Part shown: in pieces, positions 11,836 through 40,116 of the stretch
Position numbering within the stretch: position 1 is the first letter of the stretch
How the letters are laid out: every line of letters begins with the position of its first letter
DNA from: Gammaproteobacteria bacterium
GTDB taxonomy: Bacteria > Pseudomonadota > Gammaproteobacteria > GCA-002705445 > GCA-002716945
DNA: 51,161 nucleotides
Reading direction: 5' to 3'
Assembly: GCA_030835925.1 (NCBI GenBank)
Contig: JAURQW010000024.1
Coordinates: forward strand, 1-51,161
Made by a program: the position numbers and the translations under genes
Notes under the pieces: generated by a model
Seen by the model: only the letters and a program-made list of their open reading frames with translations
The model's database searches: none
Told to the model about the DNA's origin: nothing

Positions 11836-12414
11836 TTACATTCCTAAGCCATTATGGCTGTAACCCATGAATAATAACATTGGTATACTCAGCAATGTAT
11901 TGGTTCTTGATGCAAGCAGAGCCACTTTTTTTGCTTTGGCAATTTCATCTGCAGTTGCATCAACCATACCAAGTATTTTTTGTTGATTTGGCCATATTAG
12001 CACCCATACATTAAATAACATAATTGTTCCTAACCATGCACCTATGCCTATTCCTGCTGCTCCAGCTTGAAGTGTAAAAGCTGCATGTAGCATTCCATAA
12101 TCCTGCAAGTACCATGCCCCTGTTACCCATGTAACAACTGCTCCCCATCGGAACCAGACTAACGCTAAAGGAGCCACATATTTACCTATAGCTGCAGGGC
12201 CGGGGTCTTTATCAGCTGTAGCTGCAGCCATTGCAGGAACCTGTACAAAATTAAAATAATATAGTAATCCTATCCACGTTATTCCTGAAAGATAGTGAAA
12301 CCACCTTAAATAATGTTCAAAATCAACTAGTTTCCCACCTATTGCCAAAACTAGCACTGCACTTAATACAAAGCCAGAAATTATAGTACCTTTTATTGAT
12401 AGTAACGGGTTCAT
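11836..12414 (-). CDS. Urate_ox_N/PuuD-like membrane protein lacking the cytochrome c domain
   Basis: RWFHYLSGITWIGLLYYFNFVQVP, WFRWGA, GAWLGTIMLFNVW.LIWPNQQK, SRTNTLLSIPML. No CXXCH. ATG at 12414 follows GAGGTG. Confidence 0.75.
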   Translation of the reverse strand: MNPLLSIKGTIISGFVLSAVLVLAIGGKLVDFEHYLRWFHYLSGITWIGLLYYFNFVQVPAMAAATADKDPGPAAIGKYVAPLALVWFRWGAVVTWVTGAWYLQDYGMLHAAFTLQAGAAGIGIGAWLGTIMLFNVWVLIWPNQQKILGMVDATADEIAKAKKVALLASRTNTLLSIPMLLFMGYSHNGLGM

Positions 12415-12520
12415 ATACACCTCAAAAATTTATTTTATATGGGTCTTATGATAAATGATGTAAAATATTTTATCTATCAGTAAGTTTAATAAATTATGTG
12501 CTTTTTAGGATAAATTATAT

Positions 12521-14339: not shown

Positions 14340-15401
14340 TTAGAACTTATGAGTTATGCCAAGTCCATATGAACGAACAGCATTACCTGATCCTTCAATC
14401 CCTTTTCTTGTATAACCTATTGTAACGTCAGTAGACTTACTTAAGTTCATTTGATTAGAAATACTAACTACATCATAATCAGTTGTAGCAGCATCCATGT
14501 TACCTTCAGCAACAGCTATTTGAATCATGTTATGACCCATTGTGTAATGAAGACCCATAGTTGTAATGTCGCCTGCAGCATGATTTGAACCAGCTATTTC
14601 AACTTCTTCATCTGTATAGAAAACACCAAGGCCTGGCATTACTTTGTAAGAAGCAAATACTTTATCGTTACTTAGACCGCGGTTTGAGTCACCACTTTTA
14701 TCGTGATTTCTAGCAAACCCAACTTCTAAACCAGGAAGCACCATATCAGCAACCCTTAAACCAACAGCATAGTCACTTTTTTGTACATTTGCATTGTTAG
14801 TTTGTTCACTCATACCTCTTAAGTATGCTACTTCTATTGGACCTACCATAGTGTGTATGCTTAGAGACGAATCCCATGTTCCAGCTTGACCAAAATCACC
14901 ATCAGATGTTCCACCATGATTATTCAGTGCAATTGCAGTATCCACGTTCACGTCATAAAAACCCATAGTTCTATATGGTGATTCAAAAGAACCCATACCA
15001 ATATAACCTAGAGCAGTTTGGAAACCTAAGTTACCAACATGTAAGTTAAAAGTTCTACAATCTTGTGCGTTAGAACAGTTTGTTCCATCACCTGTTGCAG
15101 TACCATCTGCTATATCAAATTTCCATTCTGCAACACCAACTAGTGACATTGAGCCTAAATTTTCTTTGAATTTGATACCTAATCTACTTTTTTGACCATT
15201 ATCTCTTACAGAATCAACTGAATTAGCTGCCCCAGTAGCTGAATGATCATAACCGACATACAGACGCCCATAAAAGTGCACGCCGCTGCCTGATTTAGCT
15301 GCTGATGCAGAATTTGAAGAATTATCCATTCCCCCATGTCCGCCTGCTACAGCCATTGATGATGCAGCCATAAACATAGCTGCTGTATATAATTTATTCA
15401 T
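14340..15401 (-). CDS. Gram-negative general porin, probable major outer-membrane protein
   Basis: Signal peptide ending AVA, FYGRL first strand, SRLGIKFKENLG, C-terminal GLGITHKF beta-signal, strong GGGAG RBS and its own terminator. Confidence 0.88.
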   Translation of the reverse strand: MNKLYTAAMFMAASSMAVAGGHGGMDNSSNSASAAKSGSGVHFYGRLYVGYDHSATGAANSVDSVRDNGQKSRLGIKFKENLGSMSLVGVAEWKFDIADGTATGDGTNCSNAQDCRTFNLHVGNLGFQTALGYIGMGSFESPYRTMGFYDVNVDTAIALNNHGGTSDGDFGQAGTWDSSLSIHTMVGPIEVAYLRGMSEQTNNANVQKSDYAVGLRVADMVLPGLEVGFARNHDKSGDSNRGLSNDKVFASYKVMPGLGVFYTDEEVEIAGSNHAAGDITTMGLHYTMGHNMIQIAVAEGNMDAATTDYDVVSISNQMNLSKSTDVTIGYTRKGIEGSGNAVRSYGLGITHKF

Positions 15402-15579: not shown

Positions 15580-16755
15580 ATGAAAAGTTTTTTAATGAAT
15601 ACATATAACAGGAAGAAAGTCTCTTTTGTAAAAGGTGACGGTGTATATTTATGGGATGATCAAAATAATAAATATTTAGATGCATTATGTGGTCTGGCAG
15701 TTACTAGTTTAGGACATTCGCATCCAGATATTTCTGCTAAAATTCAGGAGCAGTCTCAAACATTAATTCATACCTCAAATGCTTTTATAATTAAGCAACA
15801 AGAAAAACTAGGGGAAAGACTTTGCAAGTTAACTGGTTTAGCAAATGCCTTCTTTTGTAATTCTGGTGCAGAAGCTGTAGAGGCAGCAATTAAGATTGCC
15901 AGAAAATATGGAAATGACCAGCATATAGAAAATCCTAAAATAATTGTTATGGAAAATAGTTTTCATGGCAGAACTTTAGCAGCACTCTCTGCAACAGATG
16001 GTGACAAGGCACATAAAGGTTTTTATCCTCTCATAGATGGCCTATTGAGAGTTCCGTATAATAATATCCACGAAATTGAAAAAATTTCCAAACAAAATAA
16101 TGACATTGTCGCTGTATTGCTTGAACCAATACAGGGAGAAGGAGGCATAAAAATTCCAGATGATGATTACCTGCCTAAGTTGAGATCACTTTGCGATGCG
16201 AATAGCTGGTTACTCATGATTGATGAAGTTCAGTCTGGGTTTTGTAGAACAGGAAAGTGGTTTGGTTATCAGCATAGTGAAATTATGCCAGATGTAGTGA
16301 CAGTTGCTAAAGCTCTTGGCAATGGTATTCCCATTGGCGCATGCCTAACTAACAAAGAATCTTCAACTGTGCTAACGCCAGGCAGCCATGGTTCTACATT
16401 TGGTGGAAACTTTTTATCTACTTCAGTGGGACTTCAGGTGCTTGATATAATGAGAGAGAAGAACTTATCTAGAAATGCTAGATTAATGGGTTTATATATT
16501 GAAAAAGAATTAAAAGAAAAGCTTGCTAAATATAGTATAGTTAAAGATATTAGATGTAGAGGACTCATGATTGGAATTGAGCTTAAATTAAAATGTTTAG
16601 GGCTCGTAGAAGAAGCGTTAAAGAATAGGTTAGTCATAAATGTCACAAAAGAAAATACCATAAGGATGCTACCGCCTCTAATAATCAATAAACCAGAAGT
16701 AGATATAATCGTAAATGTCATATGTAAAATAATAAGTGAGATTAAATATGAATAA
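15580..16755 (+). CDS. argD: Acetylornithine aminotransferase
   Basis: LMNTYNR, FFCNSGAEAVEAAIK, SFHGRT, EPIQGEGG, DEVQSG, AKALGNG, HGSTFGGN. Start reassigned to the ATG at 15580. Confidence 0.93.
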   Translation: MKSFLMNTYNRKKVSFVKGDGVYLWDDQNNKYLDALCGLAVTSLGHSHPDISAKIQEQSQTLIHTSNAFIIKQQEKLGERLCKLTGLANAFFCNSGAEAVEAAIKIARKYGNDQHIENPKIIVMENSFHGRTLAALSATDGDKAHKGFYPLIDGLLRVPYNNIHEIEKISKQNNDIVAVLLEPIQGEGGIKIPDDDYLPKLRSLCDANSWLLMIDEVQSGFCRTGKWFGYQHSEIMPDVVTVAKALGNGIPIGACLTNKESSTVLTPGSHGSTFGGNFLSTSVGLQVLDIMREKNLSRNARLMGLYIEKELKEKLAKYSIVKDIRCRGLMIGIELKLKCLGLVEEALKNRLVINVTKENTIRMLPPLIINKPEVDIIVNVICKIISEIKYE

Positions 16756-17665
16756 AGTAAGACACTTTAGGTCGTTATTAGATATCAATAAAAAAGAATT
16801 TATAAGAATAATCGAGAGATCTATTGAGTTAAAAAAAGAGACTGCTAAGGGTGTTATTAATAATTCATTATCTGGTAAAACCATGGCAATGATTTTCAAA
16901 AAAAATTCCACTAGAACTAGGGTTGCTTTCGAGACTGCTATGACAACAATGGGTGGGCATGCCATATTCTTATCATCTGACTCCACTCAACTAAGTCGCG
17001 GAGAAGAGCTTTCTGATACTGCAAAAGTTCTCTCAGGAATGGTGGATATAATTATGGTTAGAACTCATGATCACAATGAAGTTGAAGAGCTTGCTTCAAA
17101 CTCAACAGTTCCTGTAATAAATGGATTAACTGAAAAATTCCATCCATGCCAGCTTTTAGCAGATATGCAAACTTACTATGAGGAGAAAGGTTCTATCGAG
17201 GGCAAGAAAGTTGCTTGGATTGGTGATGGTTGTAATATGTGTAACTCATATATTAATGCAGCCAAAATATTAGACTTCAATTTAAACATCGCTACTCCTT
17301 CTGGCTTTGAGCCAGATCAGTCAACATTGAATTTAGCCAACGACAATGTTGAGCTTTGTGATTTGCCTGGTAAGGCGGTAGAGGATTGTGACCTAGTAAC
17401 AACAGATGTTTGGTCGAGTATGGGTGACGAGGGAGATGCAGAAAAAAGAAAAGCATTATTCAAAGGATATCAAATAAATAAACACTTGTTTGAAAAAAGT
17501 AAAAATGACTCTATATTTTTGCACTGTCTACCTGCACATAGAGGTGAAGAAGTTGAGTCAGATGTTATTGATGGGCTAAGAAGCAAGGTCTGGCAACAAG
17601 CACACAATAGGTTATATACTAGTAAGGCTTTAATAGAATTTTTACTCAAAGAATCAAAAGACTAA
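16748..17665 (+). CDS. argF: Ornithine carbamoyltransferase
   Basis: STRTR, HPCQLLAD, TDVWSSMG, FLHCLPAHRGEEV. The ATG at 16748 overlaps the argD end. Confidence 0.96.
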   Translation: MNKVRHFRSLLDINKKEFIRIIERSIELKKETAKGVINNSLSGKTMAMIFKKNSTRTRVAFETAMTTMGGHAIFLSSDSTQLSRGEELSDTAKVLSGMVDIIMVRTHDHNEVEELASNSTVPVINGLTEKFHPCQLLADMQTYYEEKGSIEGKKVAWIGDGCNMCNSYINAAKILDFNLNIATPSGFEPDQSTLNLANDNVELCDLPGKAVEDCDLVTTDVWSSMGDEGDAEKRKALFKGYQINKHLFEKSKNDSIFLHCLPAHRGEEVESDVIDGLRSKVWQQAHNRLYTSKALIEFLLKESKD

Positions 17666-19410
17666 ATACAATTTAATTTTTCTATTAGTTTCATTTTCTC
17701 CTTATTCGAGTCACAATTTATAATCTTCTTGCTAATTTTTGTTAGCATAGTTATATCTGAATTAATAATAATGTTTTTAATTTCCGGTATAGCGCTCGGA
17801 TGCATGCTAAACGATCTTAAGCCCAAACCAAGTAATAGTTTTGTGTAATTTGGATCACCAGCCATTTCACCACACAATGAAACTGGTATTTTATTTTTAG
17901 TACCTGCATTAATAATATTTTTTAAGAGTGATAAAACTGCAGAGTTAATTGGGTCATATAAATAATTTACTTCATCATCAACTCTATCTATGGCTAAAGT
18001 ATACTGAACTAAGTCATTAGTGCCTATTGAAAAAAAGTCTACATGTTTTGCGAACTTATTTGCTAGAACTGCGCATGATGGTATTTCAACCATTATCCCT
18101 ACATGAATATCTTCATCAAATTTTTTCCTCTCTTTAACCAACGATCTTTTAGCAGCAAGTATTAATTCTTTAGCCTTATGAATTTCTGATATTGTAGTTA
18201 TCATAGGTAACATAATTTTAACATTTCCTAAATTGCTAACTCTTAAAATAGCCTTGATTTGATTAATAAAGATATTATTATAATTTAGGCTATATCTTAT
18301 ACCTCTTAACCCTAAAGCAGGGTTTCTAACTATAGATCCAGTTTTAATATTTTCTGGCACTTCTTTATCAGCACCAATATCAAGTGTTCTAAAATAGACT
18401 GGAAGCTTACCCATATTTTTTACAATTTTCTTGTATGCTTCATATTGTTCTGTCTCTGATGGGAAATCATGTCGATCAACATATAGATATTCTGTTCTAA
18501 ATAATCCAATACCATCAGCTTTTTTATCTTTTATGATCTTCAATTCTTGGGGTAACTCTAAATTTGCCATTATTTCAACTCTTGTCTTATCGAGAGTTAC
18601 ATTACTTCTATTTAATATAGTTGAGAGATCTTTTTTGTTTTTTTCTTGCTTTTTTTTAAGCTGCATATAATGAGCTTTTATCTTGTCATCTGCATTGATT
18701 ATTACTATACCTTCTTCTCCATCCAGTATTATGTCATCACCATTCTTAATTATACTCAGAACATTTTTGACCCCAACAGTAGACGGCAATTCAAGACTTC
18801 TTGTTAATATAGAACTATGTGATGACCTGCCTCCAAATTCTGAGATGATCCCTAAGCTATTTGAGTCATAGGCTAATACTACATCAGAAGGACTTAAATC
18901 ATCTGTTACGATAATTAAATCTGTTAGACTTTTTTTTGAACTAGCGGCTGTTTCTTGTTTTAATTTAAGATTCTTTATTATCATTTTTACAACATGATTT
19001 ACATCATCTATCCTTTGTTTGATATAAGTATCATCTATATCATTAAAAGATTGTTTGATTGAAAGATACTCATTATGTATTGCCCATTCAGGGGAATTGA
19101 GTTTTTCGCTTATTCTGCTTTTGATATTATTAATAAAACTTTCATCTTTAACTAACATGATGTGTGTATCTAAAAATAGGTCTACATTATTTTTAATTGA
19201 AGGATTGATTTTTTCTTTGATAACTTCTATTTCTTTTATTGTTAAATCTATAGATTTATCTAGCATCTTTAGTTCTCTGGATACATGCTCTTTCTTTATA
19301 TATTTTTCTTTTATTATATTTTTTCCATGTTCTATTAAATAGCTTCTACCAATAGCGATACCTTTTGATACTGGCAAACCTTTTAATAGTATTGGAGTTT
19401 TACTCTTCAT
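17662..19410 (-). CDS. ptsI: PTS enzyme I (PEP-protein phosphotransferase, no GAF domain)
   Basis: GGRSSHSSIL (phospho-His), GIGLFRTEYL, NPALGLRGIR, SIGTNDLVQY, CGEMAGDP. Confidence 0.93.
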   Translation of the reverse strand: MKSKTPILLKGLPVSKGIAIGRSYLIEHGKNIIKEKYIKKEHVSRELKMLDKSIDLTIKEIEVIKEKINPSIKNNVDLFLDTHIMLVKDESFINNIKSRISEKLNSPEWAIHNEYLSIKQSFNDIDDTYIKQRIDDVNHVVKMIIKNLKLKQETAASSKKSLTDLIIVTDDLSPSDVVLAYDSNSLGIISEFGGRSSHSSILTRSLELPSTVGVKNVLSIIKNGDDIILDGEEGIVIINADDKIKAHYMQLKKKQEKNKKDLSTILNRSNVTLDKTRVEIMANLELPQELKIIKDKKADGIGLFRTEYLYVDRHDFPSETEQYEAYKKIVKNMGKLPVYFRTLDIGADKEVPENIKTGSIVRNPALGLRGIRYSLNYNNIFINQIKAILRVSNLGNVKIMLPMITTISEIHKAKELILAAKRSLVKERKKFDEDIHVGIMVEIPSCAVLANKFAKHVDFFSIGTNDLVQYTLAIDRVDDEVNYLYDPINSAVLSLLKNIINAGTKNKIPVSLCGEMAGDPNYTKLLLGLGLRSFSMHPSAIPEIKNIIINSDITMLTKISKKIINCDSNKEKMKLIEKLNCI

Positions 19411-20942: not shown

Positions 20943-21392
20943 TTAGTGACTATTAATAATCATCATAACATCGCTTGCAGTATTTGCTGTGCGTATTTTT
21001 TCTCGTAATACTTGATTATCTAATAGAGATGCTATATTCGATAACAACTCTACATGCATTTTATTATTATCATTTGGAACAAATAACGATATTATAATAT
21101 CAACTTTATTGCCATCTATTGAATTGAAGTCTATAGCTTCCGTTAATTTCAATATTATAATCTTGGCATTTTGGATACCCTCAATCCTAGCATGGGGTAT
21201 TGCAATGCCATTTCCAAATGCCGTTGTACCTAACTTTTCTCTCTCATATAACTTTTGAAATATCTCGTCTTTATTTGTTGATGTTAGTTCAGCCATTTTA
21301 TTACTTATAACTTCTAGGGTGTTTTTTTGACTCTTTGAATCACAATCCATTATTATAGACTCTTCAGTTAAAAAATTTGTTATTTCGCTCAT
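20943..21392 (-). CDS. ptsN: PTS EIIA-Ntr
   Basis: REKLGTTAFGNGIAIPHAR. Directly downstream of rpoN. Confidence 0.9.
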   Translation of the reverse strand: MSEITNFLTEESIIMDCDSKSQKNTLEVISNKMAELTSTNKDEIFQKLYEREKLGTTAFGNGIAIPHARIEGIQNAKIIILKLTEAIDFNSIDGNKVDIIISLFVPNDNNKMHVELLSNIASLLDNQVLREKIRTANTASDVMMIINSH

Positions 21393-21394
21393 GT

Positions 21395-22744
21395 TTATTT
21401 TATCTTCCTGTTTTTTGATGTTGGTATTAATAATGTTTCTCTATACTTTGCTACTGTACGTCTTGCAACTTTAATTCCATTTTCATTAAAGTTTTTTGAT
21501 ATATCTGAGTCACTCAAAGGCTTATTTTTATCCTCATTTGCAATAATTTTTGTTATCATTGATTTGATTGCTGTTGAGGATATCATTTTTCCATGATCTG
21601 TACTAATTTCTGATGAAAAAAAGTATTTCATTTCATAAACACCTCTATGTGTTTGAACATATTTATTATTTGTACATCTAGAAACTGTTGATTCATGCAT
21701 ATTGATTTCTACTGCTATGTCTTTTAACGATAATGGCTTCATTGCAATTTCACCTTGATTAAGAAAATCTTTCTGTTTATGAAATATTGCTCTTGCCACC
21801 TTAAGGATAGTGATATTTCTATTATTTAGTGCTTTTAAAAAGAAATTTGCATCTTGCAAATTATTTTTTACATATTCTTGATCAGATTTACTCTTAATTT
21901 TTTCCATCAATTCTTTGTATGCTTTATTGATTCTTATTTTAGGGTTTATTGAGGGATTTAATTCTACCACCCATTTAGAATCTCTTTTCACTATAATAAT
22001 ATCTGGTGTTATGTGTTCATGATGCAATATATCAGAAATAATATTTCCTGGTCTTGGATTAAGTGATTTTATGATATCTTGAGCATTATTCTCTCTCTCA
22101 AATTCTGAAATAAAAGCATCAAAATTTAGCATGGTCGGTTTAATATCATCTTCTAGTTTTTCAATCATATGTTTAGCAGAATCGAAGTTTTTGTGATCTT
22201 GATGATAATATTCAAGTTGTATTAATAGGCAGTCTTTTAACGAGGTCGCGCCAACACCTATTGGGTCAAGATGTTGAATTTTATGAAGAACCGCAAATAT
22301 CTCTTGAAAGGTAGTTTCTAAATTTCGTTTCAACAGTATAAATAGATCTTCAATAGTTTCTGTCAAGAACCCATCATCATTGATATAATCTATAATATTA
22401 TATGCAATGAACTGATCTTGTTGTGACATAGATGATAAATTTATTTGCCACATTAAATATTCCTGAAGCGATTGATGTGATGCAGGAAGTTGTTCATAGG
22501 CATCTTGAGCTACATCTCCAGTAGAAGTAGGGTAACTTAAAGACAATATTGGGCCTTCAGATGAGACCTCAACATGCTCAGATGAATTTTCATTCTCAAG
22601 AAATGGATTTTCAAGGATCTTATCTTCTATTTCTTTTTGTAAATCAATTGAATTTAGCTGTAACAATTTTATCGCAAGTTGAATTTGTTGCGTCATTGCT
22701 AATTTATTATTAATTGATAAGCTTTGCTTTGTCTTAAGACTCAT
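21395..22744 (-). CDS. rpoN: RNA polymerase sigma-54 factor
   Basis: Q/L-rich region I, ENPFLE, HESTVSR helix-turn-helix, RpoN box ARRTVAKYRE. Confidence 0.96.
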   Translation of the reverse strand: MSLKTKQSLSINNKLAMTQQIQLAIKLLQLNSIDLQKEIEDKILENPFLENENSSEHVEVSSEGPILSLSYPTSTGDVAQDAYEQLPASHQSLQEYLMWQINLSSMSQQDQFIAYNIIDYINDDGFLTETIEDLFILLKRNLETTFQEIFAVLHKIQHLDPIGVGATSLKDCLLIQLEYYHQDHKNFDSAKHMIEKLEDDIKPTMLNFDAFISEFERENNAQDIIKSLNPRPGNIISDILHHEHITPDIIIVKRDSKWVVELNPSINPKIRINKAYKELMEKIKSKSDQEYVKNNLQDANFFLKALNNRNITILKVARAIFHKQKDFLNQGEIAMKPLSLKDIAVEINMHESTVSRCTNNKYVQTHRGVYEMKYFFSSEISTDHGKMISSTAIKSMITKIIANEDKNKPLSDSDISKNFNENGIKVARRTVAKYRETLLIPTSKNRKIK

Positions 22745-23463
22745 AATTTGAAGCTATCGCCCAAGTATACGCTTTGAACAATTTTATCTTTGACAATTTC
22801 AGATGGTTTCCCATGTGCTATGACTTTTCCATCACTAATGATATATGATTCATCGCATACTTTTAATGTCTCTCTAACATTATGATCTGTAATTAGCACG
22901 CCTATGTCTACATTTATTAAATCTTTTATGATCTTTTGTATTTCAATAATTGAAATTGGATCTATTCCAGCAAATGGCTCATCTAGTAGTAGGAACTTTG
23001 GCTCAATAGCTAAAGCCCTTGCTATTTCTACCCGCCTTCTTTCTCCTCCTGATAAGCTAGCTCCATTACTATCGAGTATATTTTCTATCTGCAATGTTGA
23101 TACTAGTGAATCTAGTTTTATTTGTCTTTGTTTTAAAGAGAGATGTTTCCTGGTTTCAAGGATTGCCATAATATTATCTCTAACATTTAAGTTTCTAAAT
23201 ATAGAAGGTTCTTGCGGCAAATAACTTATACCCAGGTTAGATCTCAAGTGCATTGGAAGGTTTGTAATATCAGTATCATTTATCTTAATTAGACCGCTAT
23301 TACATTTTATTAGACCCACGAGCATATAAAACGTTGTTGTCTTTCCAGCCCCATTTGGACCCAACAGACCAACGACCTTTTTAGCATGAAGATTTATGCT
23401 TACTTTATCAACAACTTTTTTGTCATTATATTTTTTAACAAGATCCGTACAGTTCAGGTGCAT
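22741..23463 (-). CDS. lptB: LPS export ABC ATPase
   Basis: GPNGAGKTTTF, YLPQEPSIF, LSGGERRRVEIAR, DEPFAGIDP, TDHNVRETL. Confidence 0.96.
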   Translation of the reverse strand: MHLNCTDLVKKYNDKKVVDKVSINLHAKKVVGLLGPNGAGKTTTFYMLVGLIKCNSGLIKINDTDITNLPMHLRSNLGISYLPQEPSIFRNLNVRDNIMAILETRKHLSLKQRQIKLDSLVSTLQIENILDSNGASLSGGERRRVEIARALAIEPKFLLLDEPFAGIDPISIIEIQKIIKDLINVDIGVLITDHNVRETLKVCDESYIISDGKVIAHGKPSEIVKDKIVQSVYLGDSFKL

Positions 23464-24203
23464 TATTTAACCTTTTTAGTTTTTAAGATAGTCTTAACTC
23501 TATTTTGTATTTGTATCTTATCATTTTGGCCTTCTTTTTTAAGCAAAACCCATGTTTTTTTATTAAGATCATACAGCATCGTTTCGCCCTCTAATTCTTC
23601 AGCACGATCATCAGTATTTGATATCCTCTTTGCATTAGAGAGTATTCTAATTTTCCCCGTCTTCATATTCGCTATTACTCCATTACCAGAGGTTTTAGAA
23701 TTCGGAGTAGTTATTGTTGCAAATTCGCTTGTTTCTATAATTTCTTGATTAGGGTATATGATAGCTTTTGACGTTATTATATTAACTTCATTGACTTTAT
23801 TGTTATCATATTTATTAAATATTACATTATCTTTTAAGTATATTGTTTTAAAAAGAGAGTCAGGATCAAGCGCATGGTCTGCTTGGATTATCCAAAAAGA
23901 TTTTTCAGATGATCTTATATTCATAAATGGCATTATGACCTCTGATCTTAAACTATTTGGAAACTTTTCAAGCTTATCTCCAGAAAGTGTCCATGCTAAT
24001 TGTCCATTAACATCTGTTTCAGACATTTCAAAATCATTTAAGAAATGATTAGAAACACTAGAGTCTTTATTAAGCGAATTATAATTTAATGCTTCTGATA
24101 AAATATTATTAATCAACAAAAAGAACGATAACACTATTATAGTTATTAGAATAGTTTTCCTAGAAAATTTTAAAAGGAAATTATTTATTAGATTTTTTAT
24201 CAT
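23463..24203 (-). CDS. lptC: LptC with a C-terminal LptA-like extension
   Basis: One N-terminal TM helix and an LptC beta-jellyroll pattern (NGQLAWTLSGDKL, WIIQADHA, IYLKDNV, GNGVIANMKTGKIRIL), plus about 55 extra residues. Lies between kdsC and lptB. ATG at 24203 preferred. Confidence 0.8.
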   Translation of the reverse strand: MIKNLINNFLLKFSRKTILITIIVLSFFLLINNILSEALNYNSLNKDSSVSNHFLNDFEMSETDVNGQLAWTLSGDKLEKFPNSLRSEVIMPFMNIRSSEKSFWIIQADHALDPDSLFKTIYLKDNVIFNKYDNNKVNEVNIITSKAIIYPNQEIIETSEFATITTPNSKTSGNGVIANMKTGKIRILSNAKRISNTDDRAEELEGETMLYDLNKKTWVLLKKEGQNDKIQIQNRVKTILKTKKVK

Positions 24204-24729
24204 TTTTTGCGAGTACAATCAAATCACAAACATCTCTAACAGCACCAAAACCACCATATCTTGGTGTAATCCAATCTGAGTAATCAGTCAATTTATTATA
24301 GTTTGCATTAGGCACTGTAATTGATAATCCAGCCTTTTCCATTAATTCAATATCCACTATATCATCTCCAACAAAGCAGACTTGATCTAGATTATACTTC
24401 TTTGAAAATCTTTCCTTAAAATCTCCTAATTTATCCCTTGAACCTTGTATAACTTCTGTAAACTTAAGATCTTTAGCTCTGTATTCTACTGCTTTTGAAT
24501 ATCTGCCACTTATTATTGCTAATTCAACATCTAGGTTTCTAACTAACATCAGACCATGGCCATCTTGCGCAAAAAACCTTTTGGATTCAGCGCCATTTTC
24601 ATCTAGTATAATGCCACCATCAGTTAATACCCCGTCTACATCTAGTACAAGTAATTGAATATTTTTAGCTTTTTCAATTATTTTTTGATCAATAGAGTTC
24701 ATTTGTTCATAATATTTAGTATAGTTCAT
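24181..24729 (-). CDS. kdsC: KDO 8-phosphate phosphatase
   Basis: HAD motif LDVDGVLTDG, ISGR, VGDDIVD, GGFGAVRDVCD. Confidence 0.93.
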   Translation of the reverse strand: MNYTKYYEQMNSIDQKIIEKAKNIQLLVLDVDGVLTDGGIILDENGAESKRFFAQDGHGLMLVRNLDVELAIISGRYSKAVEYRAKDLKFTEVIQGSRDKLGDFKERFSKKYNLDQVCFVGDDIVDIELMEKAGLSITVPNANYNKLTDYSDWITPRYGGFGAVRDVCDLIVLAKNDKKSNK

Positions 24730-25697
24730 TATTCAATTCCATTTCTAAGAAGTTCATTAAGAGTTAGCAAGCCAACTACAGTTTTATCATGATTAATAAC
24801 TACTAAAGAAGTTATTTCATTTTTTTCCATTATACTTAATGCTTCAACTGCCATGGTATCTATTGACACCACCAAGGGTTTCTTGGTCATTACTTTATAT
24901 AAGCTTAATGCTGAAATATTTTTATGCTTTTTTAGTACTCTTCTTAGATCGCCATCAGTAAATATTCCTTTGAGTTGTTTTGAAGAATTCAATATTATGA
25001 CAATACCATAATTATATCTCGTAACTACATCAATGGCTTTCATCAAAGGTAGATCCTTATAAACATAAGGTAATTTCTTAGTAAACATTATATCTTCCGA
25101 CTTACGAAGGAGTCTTTTACCTAAACTTCCTTGAGGATGTGATTTCGCAAAGTCTTTAGACGTGAAACCTCTACACTCTAAAAGAGTAATTGCGAGTGCA
25201 TCTGACATCGCTATAGCAGATATAACGCTAGATGTAGGAGCTAAATCTAGAGGACATGCCTCAGATTTGACACCAGAATCTATTATCACATTCGTGTTTT
25301 TAGAAAGCGTCGATCTTTTATTTCCCGTTATGGTAATTAGCGGAATTTTTAGAATCTTGAATAAGGGCAACAAAAGCAACAGTTCTTTTGTTTCACCAGA
25401 ATTTGAGTAAAATATAACAACATCAGATTTCTCAACCAAACCCATATCACCATGCAAAGCTTCTGCCGCATGTAGAAATATCGAAGGACTGCCTGTGCTT
25501 GAAAAAGTTGCAGATGCTTTTTTAGCAACATGGCCAGATTTTCCGAGACCAATTGTAATTATTTTACCTTTACAGGCCAACAAAAGATCACATGCTTTTT
25601 CAAAGTTGCGATCAATCTTTTTTGTTAGTTGATTTAATGCCTGAGCCTCTTTTTTAATTGTTTTTTTGGCAATAGATGCTTTGTCGATATTTCTCAT
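24729..25697 (-). CDS. kdsD: Arabinose 5-phosphate isomerase (KpsF/GutQ)
   Basis: GLGKSGHVA, EALHGDMG, EACPLDLAPTSS, HPQGSLG and two CBS domains. Confidence 0.93.
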   Translation of the reverse strand: MRNIDKASIAKKTIKKEAQALNQLTKKIDRNFEKACDLLLACKGKIITIGLGKSGHVAKKASATFSSTGSPSIFLHAAEALHGDMGLVEKSDVVIFYSNSGETKELLLLLPLFKILKIPLITITGNKRSTLSKNTNVIIDSGVKSEACPLDLAPTSSVISAIAMSDALAITLLECRGFTSKDFAKSHPQGSLGKRLLRKSEDIMFTKKLPYVYKDLPLMKAIDVVTRYNYGIVIILNSSKQLKGIFTDGDLRRVLKKHKNISALSLYKVMTKKPLVVSIDTMAVEALSIMEKNEITSLVVINHDKTVVGLLTLNELLRNGIE

Positions 25698-26667
25698 AAA
25701 CTTATGCCATACAAACTAATTTGATACATTGTGAATAATCCAAGTAATAGTGTACATAAAATCTTACTAAATAAATAATTATGGTTTTTTATTATAATAT
25801 AAAAGCACACCATTGTAATTAGGATCATAATTATATCTCGTAATAAATCTGTAATATATAGTGGTTTAGGGAGCTCTAATGCAAATAAACCAGCTAGACT
25901 TATCACTATAGCAAAATTAAATATATTAGATCCAAGGATATTACCAATTATAAAATCAACATTTTTCTTTCTAGCAGACTCAATGCTTGATGCTAATTCA
26001 GGAATACTTGAACCTATCGCAGTAATTGAAAGCCCTATTACATAATTTGATATGCCATAATGTTTAGCAACTATAATACTACTATTTAATAATAACTCAG
26101 TCCCAACCAAAAGAGTCAGTAATCCAAATATCAGGTTTGCGAATACCCTCGCATTACTTTTTAAGTCTTCTGAGTTTACTTTCTTATAATTTTTTGAATC
26201 TTGATAGACGAATTTCTTATATAAAAATACAAGGATAAAAAAAGAAATTATTAAAAGTATAGAATCATTAACTGAGATCGTGCCATCTTTAAGTATTAAA
26301 AATACTAGTATAGAAATTATTATCAGAATAAACATGAAACCATATGTTTCTCGATCAATAAATCTGTTAACAGGTAATATATCTTTTTTAAGAAACAAAT
26401 AACTAATAGCAAATACAAACGCGATATTTGAATATTTGATCCTAATGCATTACCAATAGCTATATTAGATTCACCATCGAGACTGGATATGATTGAGATG
26501 AATATTTCAGGAGAAGATGTAGCTAAGCCAATAAAAATAAAACTAGATAAAAAATAAGAGATATTATATTTTTTTGAGATATTCTCGGTAGATGCAACAA
26601 GCACATTCGCTCCATAGCTGACCAATGCGAGACCTAAGACAAATAATAAAAAAACTGTGATTGTCAT
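25694..26667 (-). pseudogene. yrbG: Calcium/sodium antiporter YrbG split by a 1-bp frameshift (pseudogene or sequence error)
   Basis: The 5' ORF has alpha-1 motifs ATSSPE and GNALGSNI. The 3' ORF has alpha-2 motifs GSSIPEL and GNILGSNIFN. Adding one base near 26431 restores GSNISNIAFVFAISYLFLKKD and joins the two. Confidence 0.85.
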
Positions 26668-26687: not shown

Positions 26688-27431
26688 TTAATAATCTACA
26701 CCTATCACATCGATTTCAAAATCTTCTTCCGATTCCCCATCATTAACCATGGATTCACGCTTTTGTAGATAAGATTCTCTGATAAAGATATATTTATCTT
26801 TAGCAGCAGTATCAAGTATTTTTGTTGCTCTGAGTAGTCTTGCGCGTATATCAATTACACTCAAAGTATCTAATGCAAGCTCTTCTTTATTATGAAGCTG
26901 TTGAACAGGCGATATTTGTCTATCTGCATATAAACCTGGAGCATCTCTAAATGAGCTTGATCCAAAAAAAGGTAATACCAAATAAGGTCCTTGTGGCACA
27001 CCCCAGTAACCTAAAGTTTGTCCAAAATCTTCCTTATTTTTAGTCAATCCTATAGGCGTAGCAACATCGAAAATACCAAGAATTCCTACAGTGGTATTTA
27101 TAGAGAATCTAAGAAAATCATAACCAGCTTGTTGAAATTTAAATTGAAATACATCATTTGCTATCGTGCTCACTTCTCCAAGATTACTAAAAAAATTTGA
27201 TACTCCAGTTTCAATGGGGTCAGGAGTTACATATTTATACGTTTTTGCAACAGGTTCTAAGACATTATCATCGACAACTTCATTAAACCCAAACATTGCT
27301 CTATTAAAAGGCTCTAAAGGATCATTTTTAGAATTGCCTGTTGTACTGCAACTAGATAATAAAAATACTAAAATAATAGAGGATAAAATTGAGTACCTTG
27401 GTGAAAATTGATAAATTTTTGAATATTTCAT
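26688..27431 (-). CDS. mlaA: VacJ/MlaA outer-membrane lipoprotein
   Basis: Lipobox LSSC, DPLEPFNR, EDFGQTLGYWG, GPYLVLPFFG. Confidence 0.94.
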   Translation of the reverse strand: MKYSKIYQFSPRYSILSSIILVFLLSSCSTTGNSKNDPLEPFNRAMFGFNEVVDDNVLEPVAKTYKYVTPDPIETGVSNFFSNLGEVSTIANDVFQFKFQQAGYDFLRFSINTTVGILGIFDVATPIGLTKNKEDFGQTLGYWGVPQGPYLVLPFFGSSSFRDAPGLYADRQISPVQQLHNKEELALDTLSVIDIRARLLRATKILDTAAKDKYIFIRESYLQKRESMVNDGESEEDFEIDVIGVDY

Positions 27432-27490
27432 AATTATTGCTTAAATATGTTTAATTTATTTCCTATAATATTGATATTATACCTTTAACT

Positions 27491-28081
27491 ATGAAAATAC
27501 TTAAATACATAATTGCTATTTTTATTCTTTTTTCTTCATATTCATTTGCTAGTGATGGTCCAGATGTGTTTCTGAAAAATAGCGTAGAAGAAATATCAGA
27601 ATTTATATCAGAAAACAAAGATAGCCTAGATACTGATGAAAATTATCTAAGAGCAAAAGTTGATGAATTAGTTATACCAAAACTTGACATCAAGCTCATG
27701 TCAAAAATTGTATTAGGCAAAAAGAACTGGACATCTATGAACCCAAACCTACGTACGAAATTTCAACAAGCTTTTAGAACCCTCATGGTTAAAACATATA
27801 TGAAATCGCTAACAAGTTTTGATGGTGAAAAAATAAAGTTTTTACCTTATAAAAAAGGTGAACGCCCAGATGTAGCTAGAGTAAAGTCAGTTTATCTTCT
27901 CAATGAAGGAGAATTGAGTGTAAACTATAGTCTAAAACTTAATAAATCTGCAGAATGGAAAGTTTACGACATTAATATCGATGGAATAAGCCTCATTAAA
28001 AATTATAGGTCAGATTTTAAAAGTCATATTGAAAGAGATGGTATTGATTCTTTAATAGAAGAATTAGAAGCCAAACAATAA
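27491..28081 (+). CDS. mlaC: MlaC/Ttg2D periplasmic phospholipid shuttle
   Basis: Signal peptide ending SFA, MSKIVLGK..W, WKVYDINIDGISLIKNYRSDF...GIDSLI. Confidence 0.9.
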   Translation: MKILKYIIAIFILFSSYSFASDGPDVFLKNSVEEISEFISENKDSLDTDENYLRAKVDELVIPKLDIKLMSKIVLGKKNWTSMNPNLRTKFQQAFRTLMVKTYMKSLTSFDGEKIKFLPYKKGERPDVARVKSVYLLNEGELSVNYSLKLNKSAEWKVYDINIDGISLIKNYRSDFKSHIERDGIDSLIEELEAKQ

Positions 28082-28097
28082 TATTAAATTAATAAAT

Positions 28098-30560
28098 TTA
28101 AAAAGGTTTAAAAGAAATTAGTAGTTTAGGTAATAGCGTTAATACCGCTACTAATGCAATGAACATTGCAAGTCCAGTTAGCAAGCCAAAGATAATGGTT
28201 GGAATAAAATTTGATAGAACAAGTATTGAAAAACCAAAAATTATGGTTATACCAGTGAAGAATATTGCCCTGCCAATGCTGTCATGTGATCGATATACTG
28301 ATTCGCTATAGTTTTTTGTCTTATTATATTCCTCTCTAAACCTATAGATATAATGTATGCTGTTATCAACTGCTATACCTACTGCAATAGCAGCAATTGT
28401 TATTGTCATCATATCTAGAGGAAGTTTAATCAGACCCATTAGCCCTAAAACAAAACCAGCAGCTAGCAGGTTTGGTATAATCCCTATTACCGCCAATGAT
28501 AGAGATTTAAAAAGTATCAAAAACATGGTGGTTATGCCAATCATCACAAAACCCATAGACAAAATTTGTGAATTAAATAAGCTTTGAAGCATATTATTGT
28601 ATAACACCAATACCCCTGTTAAATAAAACGAATCTTTATTGAATCCTAGTTTATTTAACATATCATTTTCAATTTTCCGGATGAGATTATCTCTCCTCAA
28701 ATCTGGATTAGAGTCTAATATTCTGACATTTATTCTCGCTTGATTCCTCTCTAGTGATACATAGGGGCTAATCGCAACATCTTTAACCTTTTTTGGAACT
28801 CTTTTATATAATAAAGCTAGTTCTAGACTATCTAATTCTTTACCTTCATTTAATTTTTCCGCAACCCTTACTGTTGATGCCAAAGACAAAACTTTACCAG
28901 TCTCTGATAATGAGTCTAAATAGTCATGAACTTTTTTTATTTTGTTAATTTTATTCTTGGTAAACCATTGTTGACTTACATCAGCCTCCTCTTCATCTAA
29001 TAAATCTAAATCATAATCATCTGATACATCATTAGATATATCATCTTCCTGAAATTGAATTATTATGTCTAGTGGAGTTGTCCCACCCAGTTTATCATCT
29101 ATCTTTTTCATACCTTTGTAGATTTCTGTATTAGCTTTAAAATAATTAATAAAACTGTTTTCAACTTTTAATTGAGATATGCCATATATTGTTAAAATTA
29201 ATATAAAAAAACTAATTGTTGTAATAGAAGAACCTTTCTTGACTGTAATATCTGCTAAAAACTTCGTAAATGCAAAAGCAGTAGTTTTTGATGTATTTTT
29301 ATTATTTTTTTTAAGCAAACATAAGATGCTTGGAAATAAAAAAAATGTCGTTACAAAGGTTACAATTAATCCTAGAGTCATCATGTAACCAAAATCTATT
29401 ACAGGTTTAATGTCACTTAGAACCAAGGAAGCAAATGCAACTATAGTTGTCAAGGCTGTATAAAGGCACGGCCAAACCATCTGTTTTGTTGTTTCATAGA
29501 CAGCTTCAACTTGTTTCGATGCTTCTGAACTAATCTGTCTATAGCGAACAATCAAATGGATATTCATAGAAAGAGTAAGAATAAGCATCAATGAAATAAA
29601 ATTAGATGAGATTACTGTTACTTCCCAATTTAATAGGCCCAATAAACCTATCATAAATATAACGGCATAGATGCAGCTTAATACTGGAAGTACAACCCAT
29701 TTTATTGATCTAAAGATAACTATCAGAGTTAGCACAATAAATATGAATACACCTAAACCAAAATTTATCAAATCATTTTTGACATACAATATCATGTCAT
29801 CTGCAATCATTGGAATTCCACCCATGCGTAATTCAATGTCATGTATTTCCATGAACTCCTTCTGAACATCTCTGGCCTGCTTAAGAAGATTATGAATTTG
29901 TTTATCATATAAACTTTTTATAGTTTTATATTCAGATTTGATTGTTTCAAGTCTCAATACTTCTAAAGATGTAATATTGCCACTAATTTTCTTGGATACT
30001 AGAGAAGCTTTAATTTTATTTAGTTCTAGTAGCTCAGGATTTGAACTTAAGATAATTTGTAGTGCAGTTGTAGTTCCGTCCTCAGATATTATTAAGTTCT
30101 TATAAATTGGACTATTTAAAATTTCTTTTTTAGCTTTAATTTTATCTGTGTTATTCGATAATAATGTAGGCACATTATTAATCATTTCTATGAGAGGAGT
30201 ATCAGAGCTTTCTACCAATGGAATATCAATTAATGAAACTACAGATTCAACATTATCAATGGATAATATCCTCTTTTTGAGTCTTTTAATGATACTTATA
30301 TTTTCTTCATCAAAGATATCTCCATTATTTGGGGAAAGCGTCATTACAATGAAGTCATTAGCGCCATAATCTTGGATTATATTTCTATATTTTGCTAAGT
30401 CCTTATCATTCTCCAATATTAGAGAATCAGCAGATGCATCCAATTTAAAATTTGGAATATTTACTATCATTATTCCAAGCATAAGTAGCATTATTACAAT
30501 TACATGTTTAGGATAATTTAGGATGTATTGTAAATATATGTGTGAAAAATTTTTAATCAT
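28098..30560 (-). CDS. MMPL-family RND transporter
   Basis: 820 aa with two repeats of TM, large periplasmic loop and 5 TM. KLDASADSL, TALTTIVAFASL, LGGTTPLDII, GIAVDNSIHYIYRFREE. Confidence 0.9.
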   Translation of the reverse strand: MIKNFSHIYLQYILNYPKHVIVIMLLMLGIMIVNIPNFKLDASADSLILENDKDLAKYRNIIQDYGANDFIVMTLSPNNGDIFDEENISIIKRLKKRILSIDNVESVVSLIDIPLVESSDTPLIEMINNVPTLLSNNTDKIKAKKEILNSPIYKNLIISEDGTTTALQIILSSNPELLELNKIKASLVSKKISGNITSLEVLRLETIKSEYKTIKSLYDKQIHNLLKQARDVQKEFMEIHDIELRMGGIPMIADDMILYVKNDLINFGLGVFIFIVLTLIVIFRSIKWVVLPVLSCIYAVIFMIGLLGLLNWEVTVISSNFISLMLILTLSMNIHLIVRYRQISSEASKQVEAVYETTKQMVWPCLYTALTTIVAFASLVLSDIKPVIDFGYMMTLGLIVTFVTTFFLFPSILCLLKKNNKNTSKTTAFAFTKFLADITVKKGSSITTISFFILILTIYGISQLKVENSFINYFKANTEIYKGMKKIDDKLGGTTPLDIIIQFQEDDISNDVSDDYDLDLLDEEEADVSQQWFTKNKINKIKKVHDYLDSLSETGKVLSLASTVRVAEKLNEGKELDSLELALLYKRVPKKVKDVAISPYVSLERNQARINVRILDSNPDLRRDNLIRKIENDMLNKLGFNKDSFYLTGVLVLYNNMLQSLFNSQILSMGFVMIGITTMFLILFKSLSLAVIGIIPNLLAAGFVLGLMGLIKLPLDMMTITIAAIAVGIAVDNSIHYIYRFREEYNKTKNYSESVYRSHDSIGRAIFFTGITIIFGFSILVLSNFIPTIIFGLLTGLAMFIALVAVLTLLPKLLISFKPF

Positions 30561-30619: not shown

Positions 30620-31882
30620 ATGGATAAATTAATAATAAATGGTATGGTGCCTTTAAATGGTGAAGTAGCAATTTCGGGTGCTAAAAATGCTGTTCTGCCT
30701 ATGTTATGTGCATCAGTCTTGGTCGACAGCGGAAGTGTCGTATTAAAAAATATCCCACATCTTCATGATGTAACGACAACAGTCAGGTTATTAAGATCAA
30801 TGGGAGTGAGTGTAACCCTCGATGATAATATGAATATCGAGCTTGATCCCTCAACAATTAAAAATTTTTATGCTCCGTACGATCTCGTTAAAACCATGAG
30901 ATCATCAATATTAGTCTTAGGTCCGCTATTATCAAAATTTGGACAAGCAAAAGTGTCTTTACCAGGAGGTTGCGCTATCGGCACAAGACCCGTAGAAATG
31001 CATTTGGATGCTTTGACTAGGATGGGTGCTTCTATAAAAATAGAAAATGGTTATATAACTGCAACAACAACAAAACTAGTTGGTACGAATATCAACTTTC
31101 CAAAATCAACAGTTACTGGCACTGAGAATATATTAATGGCTTCAACTTTAGCTGAGGGAAATACGATTATTTATAATGCTGCACGAGAACCTGAGGTTGT
31201 TGACTTGGGTAATTTTTTAAATGAAATGGGAGCATCAATAACAGGTCATGGCACAGATACTATCAAAATCAAAGGTGTCTCAGAACTCAAAGGAATCTCT
31301 TATAGCGCTTTGCCAGATAGAATTGAAACAGGGACTTTTCTTGTAGCAGCTGCAATTACGGGTGGCAAAATTACTGTAAAGAATACAATACCTGAGCATG
31401 TCGAGACCATAATTCAAAAACTAAAAGAATCTGGAGCAAAAATTTCATCATCCAAAACTTCAATTACATTAGACATGAAAGGTGTAAAACCAAAACCCGT
31501 GAATATTGAAACAGGTGCATATCCATTATTTCCAACAGATATGCAAGCCCAAATCACAGCATTAAATACGATAGCTGATGGAATAAGCATAATAAAAGAA
31601 AATATATTTGAAAACCGCTTTATGCATGTACAAGAAATGACTAGAATGGGAGCAGAAATTAGGTTGGAGAAGAACTGTGCGATAATATCAGGTGTTGATA
31701 ACCTGGTAGGTGCTCCGGTAATGGCAACAGATTTGAGGGCTTCTGCTAGTTTAATTTTAGTTGGCTTAGCCGCCAAAGGAACTACCGAAATTGAAAGAAT
31801 ATATCATATTGACAGAGGATATGATTGTATAGAAGAAAAATTAAGGCAACTTGGCGCTGATATCAGTAGAGAGCCAATGTAA
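30620..31882 (+). CDS. murA: UDP-N-acetylglucosamine 1-carboxyvinyltransferase
   Basis: [50 protein letters not shown]. Confidence 0.97.
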
Positions 31883-39355: not shown

Positions 39356-40116
39356 ATGATTAAAAACATATTAGTATTCATGTTTATATTTCTATCAATA
39401 AATTTATCTTACGCACAAGAATTCAACCCACCTACTTTTGAAGAAAGATTCCCCTAAGAACGTGTCAATGATACATTCTACCTTCTTAGTTTAAACCTCG
39501 AAATTTATGATAGAAAAGAACATGAACTAATGTACAACTCATTTATTAAAACAATGGGCAATTATATTAAATTCATGAAAAACAATAAACCAGAAGGTTT
39601 AATTGGAAAGAAACTTTTATGTTCTTATAACTATGGATCTTTTATAAATGATAGTGGGAAGCGAGAGAAAACTACAGAAGAACATGGATTCATCTTTATA
39701 CCCAAAAGCACGGTTCATGGAGATATACCATATGTTGAGGGAAATCTTGCTGCCTTAGCATTTTCTGCTCAAAAACCAGATGTTAATGTGTATAAACACC
39801 CAGATGCTGGGGGATATTTAAATAACGGTTTCTTTTTTGGAGTAAATGTAACACCCGCGGCAGTAAGACTTTCAGAAAAAAAATAGGTATAGAGTTTTCA
39901 GGATTAAGTAATGGTGGTGCTCAAATAGATAGAGAAACATTATCTTATACTGATATTTACTTTAATCCAAAAAATAAAATAACATATGGAAAATGTAAAC
40001 TATATGATGAAAATATGACTAAATATTTCTTTACAAAACAAAAAGATATTATGGATAGGAATATTGAACACTACCAGAAGAAAAAAGCAGAACAAGAAAA
40101 GAAAAACAAAATATAA
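39356..40116 (+). pseudogene. Disrupted gene for a secreted hypothetical protein (about 250 aa if repaired)
   Basis: AGAGGAG RBS and signal peptide MIKNILVFMFIFLSINLSYA. In-frame TAA at 39455-39457, after which the same frame runs into ORF 39530-39886. A frameshift in the A8 run near 39880 continues as IGIEFSG...IDRETL...YGKCK...EKKNKI* to 40116. Confidence 0.75.

Follow-up and report, generated by a model that had tools for sequence, protein, structure and literature searches.

How is the periplasmic lipid carrier MlaC served at the inner membrane when the genes for its usual partner, the ATP-driven MlaFEDB complex, are missing from its locus? The question is raised by the 51,161-nt contig JAURQW010000024.1 (assembly GCA_030835925.1, Gammaproteobacteria bacterium, forward strand), which was analysed over its whole length and is referred to here as the window. 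Between yrbG and murA, the interval in which E. coli K-12 carries mlaFEDCB, the window has only mlaA, mlaC and a gene for an 820-aa MMPL-type transporter of the RND superfamily. We put at roughly 0.55 the probability that these three genes make up a single intermembrane lipid route, in which an ion-driven MMPL-type RND protein takes the place of ATP-driven MlaFEDB. The sections below set out what the interval holds, what kinds of protein it encodes and how related RND genes are placed in other genomes, before this reading is weighed against its competitors.

Results

The interval between yrbG and murA

Genes were assigned from the list of open reading frames (ORFs) together with Pfam and NCBIfam scans, the Pfam scan being run on 52 window ORFs (15 + 37). 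On the minus strand the order is ptsP, EIIA-Man, rapZ, ptsN, rpoN, lptB, an LptC-like gene, kdsC, kdsD and yrbG; beyond yrbG come mlaA, mlaC and the RND gene, and then murA, hisG, aroG and hisD on the plus strand (Table 1). The gaps from yrbG through mlaA, mlaC and the RND gene to murA measure 20, 59, 16 and 59 bp, which leaves no space for additional genes. None of the 52 ORFs gave a Pfam match to MlaD/MCE, MlaE, STAS/MlaB or BolA/IbaG, and the sole ABC ATPase of the window is LptB (TIGR04406, 359.9 bits against a cut-off of 240); no subunit of MlaFEDB (MlaD, MlaE, MlaF or MlaB) is encoded within these 51 kb.

Table 1. Positions of the three candidate lipid-transport genes and of the genes bordering them in the window.
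Feature	Position	Strand	Description	Supporting match
mlaA	26688..27431	-	247 aa, outer-membrane lipoprotein MlaA/VacJ	Pfam PF04333
mlaC	27491..28081	+	196 aa, periplasmic lipid-binding carrier	Pfam PF05494
MMPL-type RND inner-membrane transporter	28098..30560	-	820 aa, candidate inner-membrane partner of MlaC	Pfam PF03176
yrbG (Na+/Ca2+ exchanger family)	25694..26667	-	frameshift-split; left border common to the E. coli locus	PF01699 matches
murA	30620..31882	+	right border common to the E. coli locus	NCBIfam TIGR01072, 567.9 bits (cut-off 392.7)

An earlier note on this DNA, made from the sequence alone, had claimed that only mlaA, mlaC and an 820-aa MMPL/RND gene lie between yrbG/kdsD and murA, that mlaF, mlaE, mlaD, mlaB and bolA/ibaG are missing there and that the three genes are not co-oriented. 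The ORF list and the Pfam scan bear it out on each point, with coordinates that are exact and strands that run minus, plus, minus. The note had also stated that this interval normally holds mlaFEDCB, which is correct for E. coli K-12, where the order is murA-ibaG-mlaB-mlaC-mlaD-mlaE-mlaF followed by yrbG-kdsD-kdsC-lptC-lptA-lptB-rpoN. The E. coli order rpoN-lptB-lptC-kdsC-kdsD-yrbG ... murA is preserved in the window, and mlaC lies on the strand of murA as it does in E. coli K-12, whereas mlaFED, mlaB and ibaG are gone from the interval.

The lipoprotein and the carrier

The window MlaA belongs to the MlaA/VacJ family (PF04333, 2.5e-77, 259.4 bits against a gathering cut-off of 25) and matches solved MlaA chains (8i8r_D at 2.2e-34 and 5nuo_D at 6.8e-34); its sequence reads as a hydrophobic N-terminus with a lipobox-like LSSC behind it. 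Against the NCBIfam equivalog PRK15091 it reaches 151.7 bits, below the cut-off of 375, and judged by these scores it is a member of the family yet not the enterobacterial equivalog. The window MlaC is likewise placed in its family, MlaC/Ttg2D (PF05494, 2e-44, 151.8 bits against a gathering cut-off of 26), it is matched by solved MlaC/Ttg2D chains at 8.4e-20 to 8e-10, and its N-terminus is hydrophobic and resembles a signal peptide. Its NCBIfam matches, HpnM TIGR03481 at 70.8 bits (cut-off 160.1) and MlaC PRK15117 at 61.5 bits (cut-off 195), both remain below threshold.

We also searched longer proteins with the MlaC profile for fusions of MlaC to an RND protein. The search returned a single match, which has no MMPL domain, and a null result of this kind is weak evidence. 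In its precomputed Pfam list the protein matched, P0393 (1479 aa), has PQQ-like beta-propeller repeats and methyltransferase domains besides its MlaC domain.

The RND protein

The transporter gene product is an RND protein of the MMPL family (PF03176, 8.1e-33, 114.2 bits against a gathering cut-off of 20.5, in two matched stretches), with a weak Pfam match to the sterol-sensing domain (PF12349, 6.4e-08). The best NCBIfam model is HAE3 (TIGR00921), at 195.2 bits under its cut-off of 351.9, which places the protein outside HAE3; the two HpnN models (TIGR03480, 131.1 bits, cut-off 751.85; NF052374, 89.7 bits, cut-off 1100) and the MmpL3 model (NF052608, 22.1 bits, cut-off 1400) exclude it from those families also, and the BstA model gives 32.9 bits against a cut-off of 1400. 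Among sequences in the PDB, the matches to HpnN (34.9 bits) and MmpL3 cover one transmembrane (TM) bundle only, at 27–35 bits, and further matches include Dispatched and an NPC1-related protein. By sequence, the family to which the window protein belongs appears distinct from HpnN and MmpL3, and it has 3962 cluster representatives at E<1e-30.

An AlphaFold2 (AF2) model built from a 32-row alignment (pLDDT 86.5, pTM 0.83) has the two helical bundles and two mixed alpha/beta extramembrane domains of an RND/MMPL protein. The nearest solved structures found with Foldseek are MmpL4, MmpL5 and MmpL3 (TMq 0.66–0.69, 11–14% identity), followed by an NPC1-related protein, HpnN, PTCH1, NPC1L1, NPC1 and Dispatched, so that the predicted fold groups with lipid-handling RND proteins. 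A co-fold of the full-length RND protein with mature MlaC (residues 22–196), run without controls, scored 0.10 and 0.21 where the mark is 0.32, and it speaks neither for nor against a contact of the two.

The translation contains both motifs that the earlier note had picked out as leaving a TM aspartate in the second repeat only: the first repeat reads TLSMNIH, the second GIAVDNSIH. The note took them as a hint of an unusual coupling network. Such an asymmetry does exist, yet the whole family shares it and the window gene is not special in this respect. Among 80 family members (79 from related loci and the window protein), the TM4 motif is without aspartate in all 80: position 331 is Ala or Ser save for one Glu, position 333 is Asn, Thr, Val or Ser, and H335 is present in every one. 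In TM10, D732 and H736 are found in 79 of 79, one further row being a gap. For comparison, MmpL3 has Asp-Tyr pairs in both TM4 and TM10. In AcrB the essential Asp pair is likewise confined to one repeat, and thus acidic residues on one side only are not odd in an RND protein.

Neighbourhoods of related RND genes

An alignment of the RND family, run against a species-level genome collection, gave 595 confirmed relatives, of which the best 80 loci, a set rich in SAR11, were kept. Each locus carries at most 10 kb per side, with ORFs called mechanically and taxon labels taken from record titles, and all were searched with the window MlaA, MlaC and RND proteins and with E. coli MlaB-F, IbaG, MurA, YrbG and KdsD, the matches being partly confirmed with Pfam. 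An mlaC gene lies within 1.5 kb of the RND gene in 33 of the 80, in loci that span Gammaproteobacteria, Desulfobacteria, Planctomycetota, Nitrospirota and SAR324-type metagenome-assembled genomes (MAGs). The two genes are co-oriented in 31 of these 33 cases (they are opposed in L001 and L059), and mlaC and the RND gene overlap by 4 nt in seven of the 80. An mlaA gene is found within 3 kb of the RND gene in 21 loci, and murA adjoins in nine.

Two arrangements recur among these loci. In eight of the 80 the order is RND-mlaC-(ibaG/bolA)-murA, on one strand throughout; six of the eight are labelled Gammaproteobacteria and two only Pseudomonadota, and loci of this type include those of Ca. Thioglobus/SUP05 (L025), Acidiferrobacteraceae (L006) and Thiotrichaceae (L008). 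The wider context resembles that of the window: in L020, lptB-lptA-lptC-kdsC-kdsD-yrbG runs on into RND-mlaC-murA, and in L006 and L025, lptB-lptA-lptC-kdsD runs on into RND-mlaC-bolA-murA. No STAS/MlaB was found in the five of these eight loci that were scanned with Pfam. In this arrangement the RND gene fills the slot that is held by mlaFED in E. coli. The second arrangement, mlaC-RND-mlaA or mlaA-mlaC-RND, is the one described for Campylobacter jejuni and is found in 20 loci, from Desulfobacteria, Planctomycetota (Scalindua, Brocadiaceae, Pirellulales), Nitrospirota, SAR324-type and other MAGs; 19 of the 20 triads are fully co-oriented, the exception being L018, where mlaA has the reverse orientation. 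Within the flanks of up to 10 kb, neither MlaD nor MlaE was detected in any of the 80 loci, in a search made with E. coli seeds only, which divergent MCE proteins could escape.

The closest relative, at 70% identity, is L001, from an uncultured gammaproteobacterial MAG, in which the genes alternate in strand as they do in the window. The alternation is thus a trait of the lineage and not an accident of assembly. One further locus, L030, has a reverse-transcriptase (RVT_1) ORF directly upstream of the RND gene (3103–4434, plus strand), and has lost the mlaC and murA context, though its RND protein belongs to the murA-locus clade.

Phylogeny of the carrier and the transporter

The MlaC tree was built from ten sequences of murA loci (the eight RND-mlaC-murA loci, the window and L001), E. 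coli MlaC, and 24 MlaCs encoded away from murA, 23 of which are co-oriented with the RND gene. A branch with a support of 98 parts the ten murA-locus MlaCs and E. coli MlaC from the 24 others. This topology fits a resident gammaproteobacterial carrier that may have been kept while its partner was exchanged. In the RND trees, the window and L001 proteins are sister to a SAR11 clade (support 99 with FastTree and 97 by SH-aLRT in a quick IQ-TREE run under a mixture model). A placement of the two with the gammaproteobacterial murA-locus clade is not rejected by the approximately unbiased (AU) test (p 0.128), and amino-acid composition is deviant in many rows of the RND trees; for these reasons we draw no transfer scenario for the window RND gene.

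Genomes tabulated without MlaD, MlaE and MlaF

The presence of MlaA-F in 1083 genomes, as judged from Pfam, has been tabulated by Grasekamp et al. 2023 (PMC10665443, Supplementary Dataset 1), with MlaB and MlaF counted only where they are syntenic with other Mla genes; the main text of that paper nowhere contains the word RND. In the parts of the dataset covered here, MlaA and MlaC are listed, with MlaD/E/F given as 0, for Ca. Ruthia magnifica, an Acidiferrobacterales MAG, Kangiella koreensis, Ca. Pelagibacter ubique HTCC1062 and Ca. Fonsibacter ubiquis, and for the last two of these, MlaA and MlaC carry consecutive accessions (PMC10665443). Saccharophagus degradans and Oceanicoccus sagamiensis are listed there with MlaA, MlaC and MCE proteins and not with MlaE, and Sulfuricaulis limicola (Acidiferrobacterales) and most other gammaproteobacteria have the full Mla set (PMC10665443).

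Two of the lineages with MlaA and MlaC only in that table also appear among our RND loci, namely Pelagibacteraceae, to which Ca. Pelagibacter ubique belongs, and Acidiferrobacteraceae, a correspondence at the level of lineages. For the SUP05 group, the RND locus comes from a Ca. Thioglobus MAG and the tabulated genome is that of Ca. Ruthia magnifica, which we take to be a relative of Thioglobus/SUP05. The anti-correlation of this RND clade with mlaFED that the earlier note had suggested looking for can therefore be seen in a handful of lineages, when table and loci are laid side by side, but it carries no statistical test. In three Pelagibacteraceae loci scanned with Pfam, the dnaB/cvpA-purF context of the RND gene is apart from the adjacent mlaA-mlaC pair tabulated for Ca. 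Pelagibacter ubique.

Other features of the window and of related loci

The window is AT-rich, with a G+C content of 27–38% in 2-kb steps. A scan for promoters and terminators gave 23 promoter-like sites where 28.4 would be expected by chance, with terminators lacking altogether, and in such AT-rich DNA the scan tells little; an Rfam scan of the 51 kb matched no rRNA or other family. The yrbG gene consists of two overlapping minus-strand ORFs (25694–26398 and 26323–26667), each matching PF01699. Compared with the intact gene of L001 there is a 1-nt deletion between 26430 and 26431, outside any homopolymer run, and in an alignment of the two sequences the break falls in a stretch presumably equivalent to the conserved G-S-N-I-x-N-I exchanger motif, which it resembles. 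The gene may be a genuine pseudogene, or the split may stem from a fault in the assembly.

Between kdsC and lptB (22741–24729, minus strand) the window has a single LptC-like gene of 251 aa, with the LptC domain at residues 24–197; LptA/OstA was found neither there nor elsewhere in the 51 kb. L001 has an equivalent single LptC-like gene of 247 aa (15845–17847), also without lptA at that place, and lptA is present at the kdsC/kdsD-lptB site in L020, L006 and L025. In the last two the LptA-type proteins (6502–7623 in L006 and 6722–7771 in L025, both on the minus strand) are 349–373 aa long and carry one or two bacterial SH3 domains C-terminal of the LptA/LptD_N domain. At 20943–22744 (minus strand), ptsN follows rpoN after 2 bp, and hpf, which lies between them in E. 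coli K-12, is not at this site. Two ORFs, of 353 aa (14340–15401, minus strand) and 118 aa (39530–39886, plus strand), match nothing in Pfam even when E values up to 5 are admitted.

Discussion

If the three genes form one route, MlaA would be its outer-membrane lipoprotein, MlaC its soluble periplasmic carrier and the RND protein the inner-membrane station that loads or unloads MlaC, with conformational changes probably driven through the invariant Asp-His pair of TM10 (D732, H736) and the TM4 histidine (H335). The job of the pathway would be conserved: mislocalised phospholipid would be taken from the outer membrane and returned to the inner membrane, with the RND protein supplying the energy to strip lipid from a high-affinity carrier, as NPC1 takes sterol from soluble NPC2. 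The structure of MlaA is one that phospholipid of the outer leaflet can enter, the grip of MlaC on its lipid is so firm that energy is required for unloading, and the handover from NPC2 to NPC1 is a case in which a soluble carrier passes lipid to a protein of RND fold. An unchanged job is suggested by an exchange made in place with carrier and lipoprotein kept, by an MlaA built for access to outer-leaflet lipid, and by an MlaC whose unloading needs energy. The recurrent linkage of RND gene and mlaC, often with translational coupling, supports a functional coupling of the two; we infer in addition their physical partnership, the coupling to ions, a phospholipid substrate and the direction of transport. 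A wider proposal, that several gammaproteobacterial lineages (that of the window and SUP05/Thioglobus) and SAR11 have lost MlaFEDB altogether and run MlaA and MlaC on an ion-driven RND protein of a family not characterised before, the gammaproteobacterial swap having taken place at the mlaFED site, is offered tentatively, as the odds are against it in its full breadth. Were it true, the RND protein would take lipid over from a soluble carrier and put it back into the cytoplasmic membrane, as a bacterial counterpart of NPC2-NPC1.

Several observations weigh against an MlaA-MlaC-RND route that runs inward. In the window, mlaA, mlaC and the RND gene lie on alternating strands and so cannot share one transcript. 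In 47 of the 80 related loci the RND gene has neither mlaC nor mlaA nearby (six of the 47 have less than 1.5 kb of flank on one side). These loci come from 32 Alphaproteobacteria, 27 of them with Pelagibacter-type titles, six Marinobacter and a few others, and in three Pelagibacteraceae loci scanned with Pfam (L002, L009 and L031) the order around 10001–12480 is rpsF-rpsR-rplI-dnaB-RND-cvpA-purF. The RND family thus need not work with MlaC, and the linkage of the two is frequent and not obligatory. The MlaC tree contains E. coli MlaC as its only MlaFEDB-associated sequence, on a very long branch (3.03). We know of no characterised bacterial RND lipid transporter that does not export, and this favours the opposite direction. 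Coexistence of the two systems is also possible, since C. jejuni (bioRxiv 10.64898/2026.08.28.747810) and Desulfococcus oleovorans (PMC10665443) hold MlaA and MlaC together with MlaD and MlaE encoded elsewhere, the MlaA and MlaC of the latter being adjacent.

The earlier note had proposed that the MMPL protein replaced the ABC/MCE complex as the partner of MlaC, and had named conserved linkage in relatives as a check. That linkage exists in the 33 adjacent loci, across several phyla, and together with the occupied mlaFED slot and the tabulated genomes it speaks for the replacement; the 47 loci without mlaC do not conform, and the claim stands in part.

The strongest competitor keeps the three-part machine and turns it around. 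Here the RND protein would use the ion gradient to extract lipid from the inner membrane, and MlaC would deliver it to MlaA; the cargo could be phospholipid, lysophospholipid, a non-phosphorus lipid or another envelope lipid. We regard this as a serious minority prospect. An outward direction has been proposed for the C. jejuni mlaA-mlaC-RND genes (bioRxiv 10.64898/2026.08.28.747810) and for HpnN-HpnM-HpnS (PMC12324291), and BstA-BstB-BstC is a further proposed outward route made of an RND protein, a carrier and a lipoprotein (PMC11713862). The solved folds nearest to the window protein in the Foldseek search are moreover those of the exporters MmpL3/4/5 and HpnN. The linkage data fit transport in either direction equally well and cannot separate the two. 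Against outward transport, the access that MlaA has to the outer leaflet suits removal of lipid over its delivery, and the fact that mlaFED was displaced at its own site while the carrier stayed suggests an unaltered function. As for a special cargo, the window has no lipid-biosynthesis genes that point to one, squalene-hopene cyclase and other hopanoid genes are absent from the Pfam scans of its 52 ORFs, as the earlier note had said of hopanoid genes, and for a hopanoid-type cargo the HpnN models score far under their cut-offs.

It is also conceivable, and in our view unlikely, that the genes are neighbours only, MlaA and MlaC being served by an MlaFEDB complex encoded elsewhere in the genome and the RND protein being an independent transporter of lipids or amphiphiles. 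The alternating strands, the 47 loci in which the RND gene stands without mlaC or mlaA and the existence of genomes with both systems (C. jejuni, Desulfococcus oleovorans) would all be expected on such an account. It sits less well with an adjacency that recurs in two arrangements and several phyla, with 31 co-oriented pairs and seven start/stop overlaps, or with a murA-locus arrangement that drops mlaFED and mlaB and keeps mlaC, and related lineages have been tabulated without any MlaD/E/F (PMC10665443). A hopanoid HpnN-HpnM-HpnS module, with the architecture proposed in PMC12324291, is very improbable: HpnM is the top NCBIfam match of the window MlaC and the RND protein does match the HpnN models, but all of these scores fall far short of their cut-offs, the PDB match to HpnN is confined to one TM bundle, no hopanoid biosynthesis gene is found in the window by Pfam, and the RND gene is located in a lipopolysaccharide/murA housekeeping locus.

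Returning to the reading that we favour, of a single MlaA-MlaC-RND route directed inward, the idea of a three-component, ion-driven pathway is itself a published hypothesis (in the C. jejuni preprint of August 2026 and a hopanoid preprint of July 2025), and the pattern of MlaA and MlaC only is already contained in a published table (PMC10665443). What appears to be new is a displacement at the canonical site itself, and one by an RND family distinct from both HpnN and MmpL3. Full-text searches, which most subscription journals lie outside, returned no report of an RND gene displacing mlaFED(B) in place between kdsD/yrbG and murA, and none in which such a displacement is paired with genomes without MlaD/E/F.

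The location of the RND gene suggests that lipid traffic between the two membranes is powered in a different way in this marine bacterium. The direction of phospholipid movement between the membranes of Gram-negative bacteria, and the power source of each step, are still debated. A locus at which MlaC and MlaA are kept and an RND engine has replaced the ABC/MCE one would amount to a natural experiment, giving a handle on what MlaC requires of its inner-membrane partner, and bearing on whether the pathway needs ATP and on whether an RND protein can move lipid towards the cytoplasmic membrane. Some of the ocean's most abundant bacteria (SAR11 and relatives of SUP05) are among these lineages, and the question touches on the envelope economy of streamlined genomes.

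Comparison with known systems

The E. coli Mla pathway, consisting of MlaA-OmpC/F, MlaC and MlaFEDB, is the natural point of reference. The window shares with it homologues of MlaA and MlaC, the genes that flank the interval (yrbG-kdsD-kdsC-lptC-lptB-rpoN and, at its other end, murA), and the orientation of mlaC. It differs in that the interval lacks MlaD, MlaE, MlaF, MlaB and ibaG and holds an RND gene instead, and the source of energy would be an ion gradient rather than ATP. In the window, mlaA is beside mlaC, whereas the mlaFEDCB region of E. coli is without mlaA, a gene that has been described as separate from mlaFEDCB (bioRxiv 10.64898/2026.08.28.747810; PMC10665443).

The clusters of MlaC and RND genes in Campylobacter and in hopanoid loci, which the earlier note mentioned, are both in print (bioRxiv 10.64898/2026.08.28.747810; PMC12324291). 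In C. jejuni, Cj1371-Cj1373 form an mlaA-mlaC-RND operon whose three genes are co-transcribed, with overlapping mlaC and RND genes, and an RND/H+ antiporter has been proposed to work there with MlaC and MlaA; MlaEFD is encoded in another operon (bioRxiv 10.64898/2026.08.28.747810). The window brings together the same three kinds of protein, but its genes alternate in strand at the canonical mlaFEDCB site, and it does not have the co-transcribed operon with coupled mlaC and RND genes; among its relatives, co-orientation is seen in 31 of the 80 loci and overlap in seven. HpnN-HpnM-HpnS, a candidate hopanoid route, likewise has an RND protein, an MlaC-like carrier and an MlaA-like lipoprotein encoded together (PMC12324291). 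The make-up is the same three-part one, and the window proteins differ in scoring far under the HpnN and HpnM cut-offs and in having no hopanoid genes nearby.

Two further systems resemble the proposed route in outline. For BstA-BstB-BstC of Methylococcus capsulatus, a tripartite sterol route has been proposed, made of an MmpL-type RND protein, a periplasmic carrier and an outer-membrane lipoprotein (PMC11713862); the folds of the Bst carrier and lipoprotein, PhnD-like and TatT-like, are unrelated to those of MlaC and MlaA. The eukaryotic NPC2-NPC1 pair and the Dispatched/Patched proteins share a related fold with the window RND protein, as indicated by Foldseek and by the Pfam match to the sterol-sensing domain. 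Identity with the NPC1 group is 12–14% only, the extramembrane domains and the carrier differ, and the analogy is thus one of mechanism only: in both, a soluble carrier would hand its lipid to an RND-fold protein in the membrane.

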